Shown: positions 24,065 to 31,641, numbered from the stretch's first letter. The stretch: DNA of 64,000 bases from Phormidesmis sp. (GCA_965248535.1 CBDFJR010000002.1:928001-992000), one strand, 5' to 3'. The notes: generated by a model not told the origin, from the sequence alone. Numbers and translations: made by a program.

Positions 24065-24100
24065 TCTCTCTATAAACCTCCTCTACCCAATGTCGTGACG

Positions 24101-27058
24101 ATGGCTAACCCAGTTTCTACTTCACCTTTTATCTATAAAGATTGGCTGCTGATCGAGCCGAGCTTTGAGCCTAATCAACTCCATCATCGAGAAACGGTCT
24201 TCACGATCGGCAACGGTTATTTAGGAACACGGGGCACCTTTGAGGAGGGCTATCCCCGTGCGTCGCCATCTACTTTGATCAACGGCGTTTATGACAGCGT
24301 TCCGGTGATGTATACCGAGTTGGTCAACTGCCCCGATTGGCTGCCGCTAGTGGTGATCATCAACGGCGATCGCTTTCGGATGGATCAGGGCGAGGTGTTG
24401 AGCTATGAGCGCCGATTGGATCTACATCGGGGGCTGTTGAGTCGCTCCATCCGGTGGCGCAGTCCGGGGGGCAAAACGGTTGATTTGAATTTTGAACGGT
24501 TTGCCAGTCTCGCCGATCAGCACGTCTTAGCACTGCGATGTCAGGTTACGCCGATCGATTTTGACGGCTTTATCGAGGTGCAGGCGAGCATCAATGGCTA
24601 TCCCGAAAATCAGGGATTTAACCATTGGGAATGGCTCAATCAGGGCAAAACCGAGCACGGAGTTTGGCTGCAAGTGCGAACTCGTAGCTCTCGCATTGAG
24701 CTAGCGATGGCATCGGGCATCACGCTGTCGGGAGCCGAGGCTTCTCAGCAGGGGTCGAGCACTCCGGGCTATCCCACCTTGGCGGCTAGTTTTATGGCGA
24801 CCACGGGACAAACGGTGACGATCGAGAATCTGCTCACGGTGTTTACCTCGCGAGAAGTCGAGTCGCCCGTCACCATTGCCCAAGAAAAACTCGCGGATCT
24901 ACCCGACTATGCGACGCTGTTAGCCGCTCACGAGCAAGCCTGGAGCCAAACCTGGGAAACTAGCGATATTGTGATTGAGGGCGATGTCAGAGCGCAGCTT
25001 GCGGTGCGATATAACCTGTTTCAAATGTCGATCGCGGCTCCTCGTCACGACGATCGGGTCAGCATTCCGGCTAAAACGCTATCGGGATTTGGCTATCGCG
25101 GTCATGTTTTTTGGGACACCGAAATTTTCATTCTGCCGTTCTTTATTTACACGCAGCCCGCGATCGCCCGCAATCTGCTCAATTATCGCTATCACACGCT
25201 GCCGGGTGCTCGACGCAAAGCGGCCTACTACGGTTATAAAGGGGCAATGTTTGCCTGGGAGAGCGCTGACACGGGCGATGAAGTCACGCCACGCTGGGCC
25301 TCGCCCAATGACCCCTATGCCGAAGATATTCGGATCTGGTGTCGCGATCGGGAGATTCACATCAGCGCCGACATCGCCTATGGCGCTTGGTATTATTGGC
25401 AGGCGACGGGCGACGATGAATGGATGCGCGACTGTGGGGCAGAGTTGATTCTCGACACGGCGGTGTTTTGGCGCAGTCGAGTCGAATGGAACACCAAACA
25501 GGAACGCTATGAGATTCGCGAGGTGATTGGCGCAGACGAATATCACGAACACGATGTGCACAACAGCGCGTTCACCAACCGCATGGCCCAATGGCATCTC
25601 GAAAAGGCCCTGTTTGTGTTTGATTGGTTGTTTACTCACTATCCCGATAAAGCGATCGAGCTACAAAAAACGCTGCAACTGACATCTGAGCGGCGATCGC
25701 GCTGGCAAGACATTATCAATAATCTGTTCATTGCTTACGACTCAACAACAGGTCTGATTGAAGAGTTTGAAAACTTCTTTAAGATCGAAGATATTAATTT
25801 AGCTGACTATGAGCCGCGCACAAAATCCATGCAGTCTATTTTGGGCATTGATGGAGCCAATAAGCGGCAAGTGCTCAAGCAGCCCGATGTGCTGATGCTG
25901 ATCTATTTGATGCGTCAGTCGCGAGAGTTTCCTTACGATCCTAAAATTCTCAAAACTAATTGGGACTATTACGCCCCGCGCACCGATATTACCTATGGTT
26001 CGTCGCTGGGGCCGGCCATTCATGCGATCTTGGCCTCTGATTTAGGCGATGTGCAAGAGGCTTCCGATCGCTTCTGGCAAGCCGTTTTAGTCGATATTGA
26101 AGACACCAGAGGCAACGCTGCCGAAGGCATTCATGGCGCGTCTGCGGGGGGCATTTGGCAAGTGCTGGTCTGGGGGTTTGGCGGCGTAAAGCTGACGGAA
26201 AAGGGCCCGATCGCTCATCCTCATCTGCCGCCTCACTGGACTCGCCTAAAATTTAAGCTGCATTGGCGCGACCAATGGCACGAATTCGATCTAAAGAATG
26301 AAATTCACACCACGGATGTAACACAATCGACCATGACAGAGTTAACCAATTCTCCATCAATTTCCACAACGCAAAATGCTTCCGGCGTGCAGGGGTTTAT
26401 TTTTGACTTAGATGGCGTGCTCACCGACACCGCAGAGTTTCACTATCGGGCGTGGCAGCGATTGGCAGACGAAGAAAAGCTCCCCTTTGATCGCCAAGCC
26501 AACGAGGCGCTGAGAGGCGTGTCTCGTCGAGAATCGCTGCTTAAGATTACGGGGGACAGACCCTATTCTGAAGCCCAACTGCAAGCGATGATGGAGCGCA
26601 AAAACCATTACTACGTGGAGTCGATTCAAGATATTTCTCCGGCCGACCTGTTGCCCGGAGCGCGAGAGTTACTCACTGAATTGCGACAAGCTGGGATCAA
26701 GATTGCCCTGGGTTCAGCCAGCAAAAATGCCCGTCCGGTGATTGAGAAATTAGGCATCGCCGATTTAATGGATGCGATCGCCGATGGTCACAGCGTAGAG
26801 CGCCCAAAACCAGCCCCAGATCTTTTCCTGTTCGCCGCCGATCAGCTAGGCTTGCAGCCTGCCCAGTGTGTGGTCGTCGAAGATGCAGCCGCCGGAATCG
26901 AAGCCGCGATCGCCGCCAAAATGTTAGCGATCGGGTTAGGTCCCGTTGAGCGCGTGGGCGAGGCAGACCTCGTTTTGCCCAGTCTAGAAGGCGTTCACTG
27001 GGCAGACCTGCAAGTGAAATTAGGGGCCGTGAGACAACAGCCTGCGCCTTTTAAGTAA
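24101..27058 (+). CDS. GH65 disaccharide phosphorylase fused to beta-phosphoglucomutase
   Basis: ETVFTIGNGYLGTRG, GYRGHVFWDTE, GADEYHE, KQPDVLML, GSSLGP; C-terminal HAD FIFDLDGVLTDTAE, KPAPDLF, VEDAAAG. Confidence 0.92.
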   Translation: MANPVSTSPFIYKDWLLIEPSFEPNQLHHRETVFTIGNGYLGTRGTFEEGYPRASPSTLINGVYDSVPVMYTELVNCPDWLPLVVIINGDRFRMDQGEVLSYERRLDLHRGLLSRSIRWRSPGGKTVDLNFERFASLADQHVLALRCQVTPIDFDGFIEVQASINGYPENQGFNHWEWLNQGKTEHGVWLQVRTRSSRIELAMASGITLSGAEASQQGSSTPGYPTLAASFMATTGQTVTIENLLTVFTSREVESPVTIAQEKLADLPDYATLLAAHEQAWSQTWETSDIVIEGDVRAQLAVRYNLFQMSIAAPRHDDRVSIPAKTLSGFGYRGHVFWDTEIFILPFFIYTQPAIARNLLNYRYHTLPGARRKAAYYGYKGAMFAWESADTGDEVTPRWASPNDPYAEDIRIWCRDREIHISADIAYGAWYYWQATGDDEWMRDCGAELILDTAVFWRSRVEWNTKQERYEIREVIGADEYHEHDVHNSAFTNRMAQWHLEKALFVFDWLFTHYPDKAIELQKTLQLTSERRSRWQDIINNLFIAYDSTTGLIEEFENFFKIEDINLADYEPRTKSMQSILGIDGANKRQVLKQPDVLMLIYLMRQSREFPYDPKILKTNWDYYAPRTDITYGSSLGPAIHAILASDLGDVQEASDRFWQAVLVDIEDTRGNAAEGIHGASAGGIWQVLVWGFGGVKLTEKGPIAHPHLPPHWTRLKFKLHWRDQWHEFDLKNEIHTTDVTQSTMTELTNSPSISTTQNASGVQGFIFDLDGVLTDTAEFHYRAWQRLADEEKLPFDRQANEALRGVSRRESLLKITGDRPYSEAQLQAMMERKNHYYVESIQDISPADLLPGARELLTELRQAGIKIALGSASKNARPVIEKLGIADLMDAIADGHSVERPKPAPDLFLFAADQLGLQPAQCVVVEDAAAGIEAAIAAKMLAIGLGPVERVGEADLVLPSLEGVHWADLQVKLGAVRQQPAPFK

Positions 27059-27086
27059 CTTAACAGTCAAATTTAGGACTGAGTAG

Positions 27087-27128
27087 TGCGATCGTTTCTG
27101 AATTAAATTTCAGTAGAAGCGATCGCAA
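27087..27128. terminator. Hairpin between convergent genes, arms built on HIP1
   Basis: TGCGATCGTTTCT...AGAAGCGATCGCA inverted repeat after the GH65 stop, at the edge of the AT-rich island. Confidence 0.45.
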
Positions 27129-27220
27129 GTTGTATGAATGGCTAGTCCGTCTTTTTAATTACCAATAAACCAAAACGAACATCGATTCGATATCTCTACT
27201 CACTACAGAAAATGGTCTGA

Positions 27221-27802
27221 CTACCTCTGAACCATAGTTTCAGAATCATCAGGACGCAAATACTTAATAGCAAATTTGGTGATAAATAAATACCAACCTT
27301 TATCAGTCAATGAATGTTTTCGAGAAACGTCATCTTCTTCAATTCTTTTCTCAATTCGCTGTCTAGGCAACGTCGTCGGATGACTTAAATCAACAACCCA
27401 TTCATCTCCTGTGAGACACTTTCCCAGGAAAAGAAAGTCAAAAACAGTATTCTTAGGTATATCTTTGTATGCGCTTAATTGTTTCAAATCAGTCAGCATG
27501 ATACAAGGACAAAGAACAATGTTCTCTTTTCTATCTAAATCACATGTGCTGTTCATGATCATGCCAGGAGCATTGAAAAAAACTGGTTCTCCTTCTTCAG
27601 ACCAACTGATGAATGGAATCGGGTCAAGAATATCACCCTGCGCCCAAATCGGAAGAGGATTTCTAATCATTTGAATTGTACCACTCTCCTCGGCATAAAA
27701 CTGCCGAAGGGACTGGTCAGGCTCCCTTAAAGGAGAGCCTGGTAGAATTGGGAATGCTTCATTGAAAAGTTTGATCAGTTCTCCAAGTGAAATGCCAGCC
27801 AT
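27221..27802 (-). CDS. Hypothetical protein, putative PemK/MazF-like fold
   Basis: AQGDIL, GMIMNSTCDL, IVLCP, VVDLS, SLTDKGWYLF..K pattern resembles PemK/MazF-like proteins; third gene of a coupled operon. Confidence 0.5.
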   Translation of the reverse strand: MAGISLGELIKLFNEAFPILPGSPLREPDQSLRQFYAEESGTIQMIRNPLPIWAQGDILDPIPFISWSEEGEPVFFNAPGMIMNSTCDLDRKENIVLCPCIMLTDLKQLSAYKDIPKNTVFDFLFLGKCLTGDEWVVDLSHPTTLPRQRIEKRIEEDDVSRKHSLTDKGWYLFITKFAIKYLRPDDSETMVQR

Positions 27803-27806
27803 GCTT

Positions 27807-28181
27807 CTAGAAACGTGGAATTCCAGGTTGTGATTTCGACAGGATAACCTTTCTTAAAATTTGTGCATCCTCATGGGACAAAGACATGCTTTTTCTTTGA
27901 AGCTCTGTACTAAAGGTAGTTATAGCAGTTTGCGATAAGCGCCTTGTTCTACGGAAAGAATATGCACCTATATCAGTTGAAACCGCCGAGCCAATAGAAA
28001 TTGATTGAGTGGGCAATGTTGAAGCTGAAGTCATAATAGTTGCAGCAAAAATTACTCCAGTTAACTGAAAAGATAGGTTATTATATGCGTCTGCAAGTCC
28101 TTTGCTTCCTGAAGGAACGTATTTTTCTGAAGAAGCTGAAGCTGAGTTAGTGCTTAAATTTTTGTCTGCATTAATGTTCAT
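27807..28181 (-). CDS. Small Ser/Thr-rich hypothetical protein
   Basis: 124 aa; ATGA overlap with the upstream gene and a 4-bp gap to the downstream gene support a real gene. Confidence 0.6.
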   Translation of the reverse strand: MNINADKNLSTNSASASSEKYVPSGSKGLADAYNNLSFQLTGVIFAATIMTSASTLPTQSISIGSAVSTDIGAYSFRRTRRLSQTAITTFSTELQRKSMSLSHEDAQILRKVILSKSQPGIPRF

Positions 28182-28888
28182 ACTCTTACTCCTTTTTCAT
28201 GTTGAGAAATCAGGTTTTGAAAGTTCTCCCATATAACGTCATGCGCTTTATCATTCCAGTCTAATATCATTTCGATGTCCCATGATTTCTGGGAAGAATT
28301 TAAGGACACATCTATGTCTAATATTAAATCCTTTGGCTCCACTGGAAACTGCACGTTAATACTTAAGAGAGTCCCTTCATCATCAAGCTTATTAATCTCC
28401 CTAAGCTGAAGAAGTTGCGTCCTGGAAATATCAGTATTTTGAAACGGAAGGTTAATGTTCAAAATTGAGGGCGGATAGTCAACGTTGGAGAACCTATTGA
28501 TATAACGAAGCCCTAGTCTATTAAGAGTAGATAGACTGACAAATTGTTCGGTGGCAGTTAGAATTTTCCTAATATTTTCAAGGAAGCTGGAAAAGCCTCT
28601 GTAGGAAACAGCATTGATACTCAATACATCGGTGCCCGTTTGAAATAGTAACGATTTATCAGAATTAGTAAAGCGGTGTTTCACTAACCCTGCCAGTTCA
28701 ACAATTTCAGGGATCTCAGCAGTCGGAAGCTTTTGAGTGACCGGAAACTCTTTTTGCTGAGACATTGCCATTCCTCCAGCGAACAGCGCATAATCACTTA
28801 CTGTTGGAAAGCGGATCTCAAAAACTGCTTCCTGCAAGGGAGGATTACGCCAAGGTTCATGATTTTTCACAATCTTTAACCACTGCAA
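28178..28888 (-). CDS. TIGR04255 family protein
   Basis: NPPLQEAVFEIRF, RLGLRYINRF and LILDIDV motifs typical of the family; start uncertain (28888 or 28870). Confidence 0.8.
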   Translation of the reverse strand: MQWLKIVKNHEPWRNPPLQEAVFEIRFPTVSDYALFAGGMAMSQQKEFPVTQKLPTAEIPEIVELAGLVKHRFTNSDKSLLFQTGTDVLSINAVSYRGFSSFLENIRKILTATEQFVSLSTLNRLGLRYINRFSNVDYPPSILNINLPFQNTDISRTQLLQLREINKLDDEGTLLSINVQFPVEPKDLILDIDVSLNSSQKSWDIEMILDWNDKAHDVIWENFQNLISQHEKGVRV

Positions 28889-29063
28889 CGAAGACCATAA
28901 GTTTACAAGTCCAGCTTAATCGATTTGCAGGAGCATTATAGCCAATACAACTACTAGATTTTCAGTGCACATGAGTTGAGATTTTTGGAACCCTCGTAGC
29001 ATATACATATTGTGTAAAGTCGGCTTAGACAGACAATACACCGAAATTCCTCAATGCGACAAA

Positions 29064-29093
29064 GGCTACCCACGTCTAGAGAGTTGGGTAGCC
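29064..29093. terminator. Inverted repeat, possible terminator of the 29146-30042 gene
   Basis: GGCTACCCA-N12-TGGGTAGCC. Confidence 0.4.
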
Positions 29094-29145
29094 AAGCGGA
29101 ACTGAGTGGGCATTAAATGCTCTTCTCTCTTACCCAAAACTTCCC

Positions 29146-30818: not shown

Positions 30819-31574
30819 TTAGGGTTGTTGTTCAATTCTAGTGCGATATTTTGGTGGCACTCTAGCGCAATGAGGATCAAGAAAATCGATCAAGTCGATG
30901 AGCTTACTGTGGATCAACACGAGTCTCTTCGCGTCAATCTTTGGCGCATTTGCCATCTCGTCAATATCGTTTTTTAGCTTTGTAAACCAGCTTGCAAACT
31001 CTGGATCGCCCATCTTTTTTATAAACGTTGCATAGCCGATGCACTCATATCCAATCACTTCACTACTAGCACGAGAAACCATCATGATTTCCCCGATCGC
31101 TCGCTGTTCGCCGTTATGAAGTTGGAAGATTTCCCCCGGTTTATAATGGGAAAATGCTTGGTTAATGTTGGTCAGTAGCTCACTCAATTGACGATTTAGT
31201 TCTAAATCACCCAAGTCTAAAAACTGAATTTCTCGACGCAAAATCTCCACCCACCCAAGATACTCCGCCACCACATAGAGCGTGTTGTGAATGGCATAGC
31301 TTTCGGCAGATGGCGATTGTTGATAAAAACGCTTTAAAAAATCTTGCTGATGAATGTTATACAGGCGGCTTTGGAGATCAATGGCCGATCGCAACAAAGG
31401 ATTGCGGTATTTAGACATCAACGCTGCCGTCTGAGCTTCTCGCGATTCGGCTTCACGCTGCTTGGTGAGTCGGTCAGTCAATCGGGCAATGCGAGTTTGA
31501 CCGTAAACACTGATGATGGCGCTAATCACCGCGATGATTGCAGCGATCGTGGCCGTGATAACTTCAGGCTTCAT
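30819..31574 (-). CDS. Hypothetical protein with N-terminal TM helix and helical soluble domain
   Basis: VITATIAAIIAVISAIISVY TM; YRNPLLRSAIDLQSRLYNI, EYLGWVEILRRE, EQRAIGEIM; immediately downstream of tRNA-Gly. Confidence 0.7.
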   Translation of the reverse strand: MKPEVITATIAAIIAVISAIISVYGQTRIARLTDRLTKQREAESREAQTAALMSKYRNPLLRSAIDLQSRLYNIHQQDFLKRFYQQSPSAESYAIHNTLYVVAEYLGWVEILRREIQFLDLGDLELNRQLSELLTNINQAFSHYKPGEIFQLHNGEQRAIGEIMMVSRASSEVIGYECIGYATFIKKMGDPEFASWFTKLKNDIDEMANAPKIDAKRLVLIHSKLIDLIDFLDPHCARVPPKYRTRIEQQP

Positions 31575-31641
31575 AGTAATCGCCTCTAGGGTGAAGCGTA
31601 AATGTCCGATCGCTTCCCTCAAAAACCATCAATCTCAAATA

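Follow-up and report, generated by a model that had tools for sequence, protein, structure and literature searches.

What does a compact block of three short genes do in Phormidesmis sp., where it lies on the minus strand of the 64,000-nt stretch analysed here (the window, over the whole of which positions are counted)? The initial annotation had described three co-oriented, tightly coupled genes, and three minus-strand open reading frames (ORFs) are indeed present at 28178-28888 (gene 1, 236 amino acids (aa) when read from a TTG), 27807-28181 (gene 2, 124 aa) and 27221-27802 (gene 3, 193 aa). The coupling is equally real, with an ATGA overlap of genes 1 and 2 at 28178-28181 and a 4-bp gap between genes 2 and 3 at 27803-27806. 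We propose, with a rough probability of 55%, that the triad is a mobile cassette providing an antiphage toxin-antitoxin switch that depends on a guardian. The gene-1 product, a TIGR04255 protein, would bind the hydrophobic, Ser/Thr-rich N-terminal tail of the gene-2 protein and stabilise it, while the conserved gene-2 C-terminus would neutralise the MazF-fold protein of gene 3; a phage protein occupying the guardian would then free the toxin, and the infected cell would stop.

The assignment of gene 1 to TIGR04255 was borne out by the NCBIfam profile (E value 3e-28, 99.3 bits against a curated cut-off of 30), which aligned over positions 3-245 of 252. As most gene-1 homologues are 229-232 aa long, the GTG at 28870, which gives 230 aa, is a likelier start than the TTG. 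The AlphaFold2 model is a two-lobed alpha/beta protein with a predicted local distance difference test (pLDDT) score of 90.6. When 48,161 chains were aligned to it, 60 reached Z≥5, and among the best 50 the nearest solved folds were the guanidino-kinase/McsB catalytic domains and TATA-binding protein (Z≤7.9, root-mean-square deviation (rmsd) about 4-5 Å, 7-8% identity), weak matches at the level expected for common arrangements. SecB was absent from these best 50 of 48,161 chains and from the Foldseek matches listed, in comparisons of the whole model. Gene 1 had no Pfam match at E≤0.5, no significant match to the gene-1 or gene-3 profile emerged among the sequences of solved structures, and matches in the protein atlas were confined to unnamed or TIGR04255 clusters. 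We propose that gene 1 encodes a guardian of the antitoxin, acting as a chaperone or sensor. Predicting the gene-1 and gene-2 proteins as a complex returned a score of 0.01 (mark 0.32), which weighs neither way. Separately, an unnamed 202-aa viral protein in BFVD (A0A515MGR4) matched the gene-1 model far above the other rows (E 6e-9, TM score 0.56-0.64).

For gene 3, a PemK/MazF-type ribonuclease had been suggested, and the fold was recovered, while the catalytic Arg/Thr pair of such enzymes is apparently missing. In the AlphaFold2 model (pLDDT 85.0) the fold domain comprises residues 51-185 and is preceded by an N-terminal extension of about 50 residues. The Foldseek check run on this model gave top rows that were all MazF at probability 1.00. 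Against S. aureus MazF (4mzm_A), Z was 12.4 with an rmsd of 2.6 Å over 112 residues; the next-best folds were CcdB (Z 10.8) and Kid (Z 10.6), and ranks 1-11 (Z≥8.3) were all toxins of the MazF/PemK/CcdB type, with unrelated folds at Z≤3.7. The gene-3 family, which forms 320 clusters at 50% identity, bears no Pfam or PADLOC name, and none of 144 members matched the Pfam PemK model (PF02452) at E≤0.05.

Cleavage by MazF requires an Arg and a Thr, R25 and T48 in B. subtilis according to the accessible text of PMC10893535, and among 24 canonical cyanobacterial MazF proteins the catalytic Arg is invariant and the Thr nearly so. A weak profile alignment (probability 7%, E 0.005) placed these residues at about A78 and I101/M102 of gene 3, and a shift in register of 1-2 residues would still give no conserved Arg or Thr in the 144 members. 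Instead, Q55, D57 and C87 are invariant in the 144 sequences, and N118, K176 and R183 are nearly so. With the MazF Arg/Thr pair apparently missing, the term ribonuclease is not established for gene 3. From its modelled fold, we propose that the protein is a toxin with a non-canonical active site. The chance that it is an RNase whose active site has been rewired is about even; we have less confidence in a cysteine-dependent activity or a protein poison like CcdB, and we consider it unlikely that the protein is non-toxic. One of the 144 relatives (alignment A3) also matched retron-type reverse-transcriptase models, and this entry may be chimeric or fused.

The gene-2 protein, for which no library match exceeded the cut-off, had been described as largely disordered with one hydrophobic stretch. 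An alignment of 38 homologues confirmed the stretch at about residues 38-56, followed by small residues and proline; it lies within a Ser/Thr-rich region, residues 1-82, where serine plus threonine (S+T) make up 29% of residues 1-80. The best 19-residue hydropathy in this copy is 1.34. The description as disordered held only in part, because a C-terminal block (about residues 83-124) is conserved too, ending in G-x-P-x-F and carrying F90, S98, G120 and F124 invariant in the 38 sequences. Comparison with locus L021 indicated purifying selection on all three genes, with ratios of non-synonymous to synonymous substitution (dN/dS) of 0.10, 0.23 and 0.07 for genes 1, 2 and 3, and within gene 2 of 0.26 for residues 1-82 and 0.14 for residues 83-124. 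We propose gene 2 as the antitoxin.

The neighbourhood-conservation check showed that the three genes travel together. Close gene-3 relatives were found in 8 genome and 10 metagenome loci, which gave 17 distinct loci once L066 was dropped as a duplicate of L026; all three genes stand in order in 15 of them, and the remaining two run off the ends of their contigs, with gene 2 or its end still visible. In 401 genomes of the phylum, 13 of 17 matches to the gene-3 profile had a co-oriented TIGR04255 gene within about 3 kb upstream (coordinates compared by hand), one had a gene-1 remnant, one a different first gene and two (L047 and L121) none. The latter two are two-gene units (L047:366-1248 and L121:3284-4443), in which the gene-3 family member is accompanied by a small upstream gene with no Pfam match. 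By motif, these small genes resemble antitoxins of the AbrB and Phd types. At L052:811-2661, a MazF-like gene weakly matching the family is preceded by a first gene of 214 aa and then a gene of 92 aa, and the first gene of L057 belongs to a third family. Both of these first genes were considered as TIGR04255 members and rejected; as neither aligns to the gene-1 profile, they were left out of the TIGR04255 counts.

The low GC content that had been claimed for the block is also real: 39.4% against 50.4% for the genome, a value as low being found in only 4 of 3011 equal-sized segments. The HIP1 octamer is truly absent, as had been stated, but its absence alone is weak evidence because 614 of the 3011 segments likewise lack it; absence of the core CGATCG, which the block also shows, is rarer (32/3011). 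HIP1 density and the names borne by close homologues mark the host as a cyanobacterium. Triad GC was below that of the flanks in all 11 loci measured, and the genomic contexts varied. Among six other genomes of the genus examined, the triad was at the same site in one (G007); in the other five the flanking genes were not adjacent, and an empty insertion site was not found. The three genes form a conserved mobile cassette. A distant triad with a true TIGR04255 first gene lies beside the portal gene in the P2-like Pseudomonas phage Dobby, and another, whose first gene fails the TIGR04255 profile, immediately precedes an HXS cluster in a Leptospira phage record. Scans of viral contigs with two gene-3 alignments detected no relative, neither gene 3 nor one relative had a match in plasmid searches, a plasmid search with the Dobby protein found one unannotated plasmid, and E. 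coli genomes held no DNA match to the Dobby triad. As the broad alignments were too variable for contig scans, the contexts of distant gene-3 relatives are those of the two phage records and the cyanobacterial sample.

Gene 1 is not tied to one kind of third gene. TIGR04255 is patchy, occurring in 48 of the 401 genomes of the phylum and in 15 of 61 relatives, and in these 401 genomes no sequence passed the cut-off of a SecB profile. From 72 gene-1 ORFs examined we obtained 65 three-gene chains, two of which were artefacts of one broken locus, leaving 63 cyanobacterial triads; the seven ORFs without a chain comprised three at contig ends, two broken copies, one in which an insertion separates genes 2 and 3, and one whose third gene went uncalled. 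The order of accessory gene, middle gene and toxin-type gene is common to the window and the 63 chains. The third gene belongs to the gene-3 family in 30 chains, and elsewhere encodes HEPN (3, two of them over the Pfam cut-off), PIN (2), DUF7689 (1), a protein with a metallo-beta-lactamase (MBL)-type motif (1), a papain-like protein by motif only (1) or a product matching no library (25). A working label of 'ART-like' for these 25 was dropped, as it relied on an Arg...Ser...His pattern, while no library matched these genes and an iterative search did not unite them. On a quick tree of 63 gene-1 proteins, which carried long-branch warnings, the MazF label needed 11 changes, at least 6 of them forced by well-supported branches, indicating that third genes have been exchanged repeatedly.

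The middle genes fall into about 24 unrelated clusters, some with sub-cut-off matches to helix-turn-helix (HTH) or HEAT models, and many of those in other TIGR04255 triads lack a hydrophobic stretch by inspection. What they share is composition. S+T in residues 2-61 averaged 0.22 in 68 middle-gene proteins, compared to 0.12 in third genes and, across 1867 long ORFs from the genome of the window, 0.14; it exceeded the third-gene value in 21/24 clusters, and was greater in the N-terminal 60 than in the C-terminal 50 residues in 24/24. A separate subtype (L003, L005, L070-L072, L075, L079 and L082) combines an HTH middle gene with a MazF-like toxin of about 260-320 aa bearing an extra C-terminal domain.

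Natural rearrangements divide gene 2 in two. L113 and L118, with the MazF-like toxin, were compared with L116 and L117, which have an unrelated third gene; gene 1 is 93-96% identical between them, and the DNA identity stops inside gene 2, the C-terminus of which was replaced along with the toxin. In L120, a deletion has joined the initial 21 residues of gene 1 to a stub whose end is formed by the C-terminal 41 residues of gene 2, so that gene 1 and the gene-2 tail were lost together, and the toxin ORF is full length. Gene 2 is therefore inherited in two portions, the tail with gene 1 and the C-terminus with the toxin. The L120 deletion mirrors the removal of the addiction tail in toxin-antitoxin-chaperone (TAC) systems, where, according to the accessible part of a preprint (10.1101/2024.02.24.581848), loss of the antitoxin tail makes the pair independent of the chaperone. 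Broken copies complete the picture: at three loci gene 1 is broken without clean removal of the tail, and there the toxin was broken (G007) or gone (L105 and L019); the toxin was broken behind an intact gene 1 in L027 and L114; and in no examined locus did a full-length gene 2 and an intact toxin remain beside a broken gene 1. These events are few, and all of them fit a single wiring, in which the tail belongs with gene 1, the C-terminus belongs with the toxin and gene 1 would be protective.

That the target of the switch may be phages is suggested by the contexts of relatives and by flags in DefensePredictor. In L065 (3032-11949), a type V-K CRISPR-associated transposon at tRNA-Val apparently carries the triad as its only cargo, located between cas12k, with a small regulator-like neighbour, and tniQ-tnsC-tnsB, with CRISPR-like repeats and the tRNA-Val adjoining. 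In L023, a type II restriction-modification (R-M) pair lies within about 0.8 kb of the triad; in L027, the distance to a type IIG gene is about 2 kb, and the triad directly follows the same tRNA-Val, without transposon genes. The position by the portal gene is a defence hotspot in E. coli P2-like phages, as described in the portion of PMC9122126 available, and HXS is reported as antiphage in the available text of PMC13128918. In the part of the DefensePredictor supplement available (PMC13092281), TIGR04255 proteins are listed as 'putative novel defense gene'. The catalogue of named systems was silent: none of the three triad proteins matched PADLOC-DB 2.0.0 at E≤1, no PADLOC family was common to more than one of the 144 gene-3 relatives, and 1 of 22 related-triad proteins gave a match, a weak one to PDC-M32A.

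Several observations weigh against the guardian-dependent antiphage switch. The catalytic Arg and Thr of MazF are not conserved in the 144 members of the gene-3 family, and in some relatives the hydrophobic stretch of gene 2 has a hydropathy as high as 2.0, in the membrane-span range. Swap and deletion were each seen once, and three loci underlie the pattern of losses, one of them in a fragmented assembly open to errors. Two of the 17 gene-3-family matches (L047 and L121) are without any gene 1, so that gene 1 is not required by every family member. Of the 11 related loci scanned, just four (L021, L023, L027 and L065) are near R-M or CRISPR-transposon genes, a raw count without a matched background and with several loci on short contigs. 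The copy in the window stands among housekeeping genes, and a PADLOC scan at E≤1e-15 gave no match for the 21 window ORFs lying within about 15 kb. Finally, the related loci are not independent, and the counts therefore overstate the evidence.

The alternative that survives best keeps the same three-part wiring and gives it another purpose: an addiction or stress module that retains mobile DNA or pauses growth. The cassette is low in GC, patchy (48/401 genomes) and carried by transposons and phages, no strong defence neighbour stands beside this copy, and gene-1 loss accompanies toxin loss, as addiction alone predicts. However, the repeated exchange of toxins (the ≥6 forced changes of the quick tree), the P2-type hotspot and the placement by HXS suit an arms race better, and both characterised E. 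coli TAC systems compared are antiphage in the accessible text of 10.1101/2024.02.24.581848 and PMC11618068. We regard an addiction or stress module as unlikely, though it is the most serious of the alternatives.

Next stands a different role for gene 1, as a nucleic-acid sensor or modifying enzyme that would detect infection, mark the gene-2 tail for removal and so activate the toxin. The closest folds of gene 1, TATA-binding protein and the guanidino-kinase/McsB catalytic domains, point that way, and the Ser/Thr-rich tail could be a modification target, but these are the weak fold matches described above (Z≤7.9, rmsd about 4-5 Å, 7-8% identity). Moreover, loss of a mere activator would be harmless, yet no examined locus retains a full-length gene 2 and an intact toxin behind a broken gene 1. 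This places a sensing or modifying enzyme slightly lower again in our estimation.

A membrane-anchored or exported gene-2 protein, with gene 1 as its targeting factor and envelope damage or phage entry as the event that frees gene 3, is improbable. The hydrophobic stretch conserved over the 38 homologues, the small residues and proline after it and the hydropathy of up to 2.0 would suit such a protein, whereas the best 19-residue value here is only 1.34 and many middle genes of other triads have no stretch. Least probable of all is a regulatory triad in which the MazF-fold protein of gene 3 is non-toxic and serves, for instance, as an RNA-binding or anti-sigma-like regulator, as the missing canonical catalytic residues and invariant cysteine might suggest, given that HEPN and PIN nuclease families fill the same slot, that members of the gene-3 family also form two-gene units with other small genes upstream and that gene-3 loss tracks gene-1 loss.

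The surroundings of the cassette were less clear than first described. Upstream of gene 1, a TATAAT hexamer is present at 28935-28940 on the minus strand and is a candidate -10 element, but it was not among the sites listed by a promoter scan, which was at chance level here (4 sites against 4.8 expected). The hairpins claimed on both sides both fold (about -20 and -17 to -19.5 kcal/mol). The first, at 27087-27128, contains a HIP1 site and lies between the convergent 3' ends of the GH65 gene described below and gene 3, where it may act as a terminator; native sequence at 27080-27135 folded at -20.4 kcal/mol on the plus strand and -15.1 on the minus strand. The second, at 29064-29093 on the minus strand, follows the upstream minus-strand gene and is likely its terminator, which would insulate the cassette; native sequence at 29055-29100 gave -19.5 (plus) and -17.4 kcal/mol (minus). 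A terminator scan listed neither hairpin. As for the carbohydrate genes that the initial annotation had placed on both flanks, the left one stands: library matches identify the plus-strand ORF at 24095-27058 as a GH65 glycoside phosphorylase/hydrolase fused to a beta-phosphoglucomutase. The right flank is not confirmed as a carbohydrate gene, because its DUF4432/DUF5107 matches fall below the cut-off. The downstream junction of the GH65 fusion varies between genomes of the genus, and the gene upstream of it is one that we take to be sucrose-synthase-like. About 2 kb from the triad, a minus-strand ORF at 30819-31622 (267 aa, GC 45.6%) weakly matches (E 1e-7) the PADLOC model of RTasTM, which is a DRT-associated membrane protein. 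The genome of the window also holds a second TIGR04255 triad (L018, G000:C5:1746447-1747172), with a 217-aa helical middle gene and a cysteine-rich 173-aa third gene that is unassigned.

Among known systems, MazEF/PemIK share with the triad the MazF/CcdB fold of gene 3 and a partner gene directly upstream, and CcdB and ToxN/AbiQ are fold relatives. They differ in that gene 3, at 193 aa, has an N-terminal extension and invariant Q55/D57/C87 in place of conserved catalytic Arg/Thr, that the partner has no match to a DNA-binding domain, and that a third gene heads the operon here. Another system, three unannotated genes in the P2 hotspot where a distant triad also sits, is presumably Rst_3HP. Identity with it was rejected by eye, as its proteins, in the available part of PMC9122126, exceed those of the triad in size and do not contain the gene-3 motif QGD...CD. 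Type II Gabija (Liu-DS1) offers a divergent MazF-like protein, GajC, in a validated antiphage system; according to the accessible text of PMC13069673, GajC has a UvrD helicase partner and a MazF domain split by a helical insertion, and no TIGR04255 or small antitoxin is described there.

The nearest validated system by layout is DS-42 (PRO1) of DefensePredictor, which, in the available part of PMC13092281, comprises three co-oriented genes, the first of 238 aa and the middle of 190 aa, followed by an effector, and is defensive. Its effector is an MBL hydrolase, whereas gene 3 here has the MazF fold. One of our loci, L119, has the same layout as DS-42 and links the two: it combines a true TIGR04255 match with a 139-aa gene and a protein with an MBL-type motif. 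The first gene of DS-42 is named 'hypothetical protein' in that source and is likened to TIGR04255 triads by layout alone. By eye, the first gene of L052 resembles DS-42 protein 1, without alignment to TIGR04255. In the literature searched, TIGR04255 and its aliases are unnamed in the main text, the coverage leaving out subscription papers and some supplements, and the same literature, mostly at the level of titles and abstracts, holds no description of the triad or of a TIGR04255 role.

The closest parallel in logic, as the initial annotation had suggested, is with the TAC systems HigBAC, CmdTAC (PD-T4-9) and MqsRAC. In these, a SecB-like chaperone holds the disordered C-terminal tail of the antitoxin and a phage protein competes for the chaperone (10.1101/2024.02.24.581848 and PMC11618068, in the parts accessible). 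As far as these sources go, the likenesses are three genes, a single accessory family behind which toxin-antitoxin units can be interchanged, a low-complexity tail on the antitoxin, and natural loss of the accessory gene plus tail that leaves a two-gene unit. The swaps and deletions inside gene 2 lend the parallel genomic support; the position of the tail, which is the reverse of that in TAC systems, does not. Gene order is toxin-antitoxin-chaperone there, whereas here the accessory gene is first and the toxin last; the tail is C-terminal with spaced aromatics there, and N-terminal and Ser/Thr-rich here; no SecB match was found for gene 1 (Pfam E≤0.5 and the fold matches listed); and MazF, the fold of the toxin here, is not mentioned in the accessible text of the TAC preprint (10.1101/2024.02.24.581848). 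The triad is thus a TIGR04255 cassette that is not TAC by tail position or gene order, nor canonical MazEF by active site, and by analogy it would best be read as TAC logic in mirror image.

A bolder form of this analogy, to which we give somewhat less than even odds, is that TIGR04255 founds a second, SecB-independent class of TAC systems: a universal sensor platform gripping an N-terminal Ser/Thr-rich addiction tail, with swappable toxin-antitoxin units (MazF-like, HEPN, PIN, MBL and probable ADP-ribosyltransferases) plugged in by recombination inside the antitoxin gene, and here with a cysteine-centred MazF-fold toxin. If the guardian model holds, TIGR04255 would become a widespread immune sensor, a testable mechanism would be available for many unannotated three-gene cassettes, possibly including DS-42, the working of which it may explain, and a MazF-fold toxin family of 320 clusters with chemistry unlike that of MazF would be added. 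The natural swap and deletion loci pinpoint the exact gene-2 fragments of interest. The TAC systems compared all depend, in the accessible sources, on SecB-like chaperones, and the 401 genomes held no SecB over the cut-off against 48 with TIGR04255, and a TIGR04255 guardian would have arrived at the logic of HigBAC, CmdTAC and MqsRAC in mirror image.

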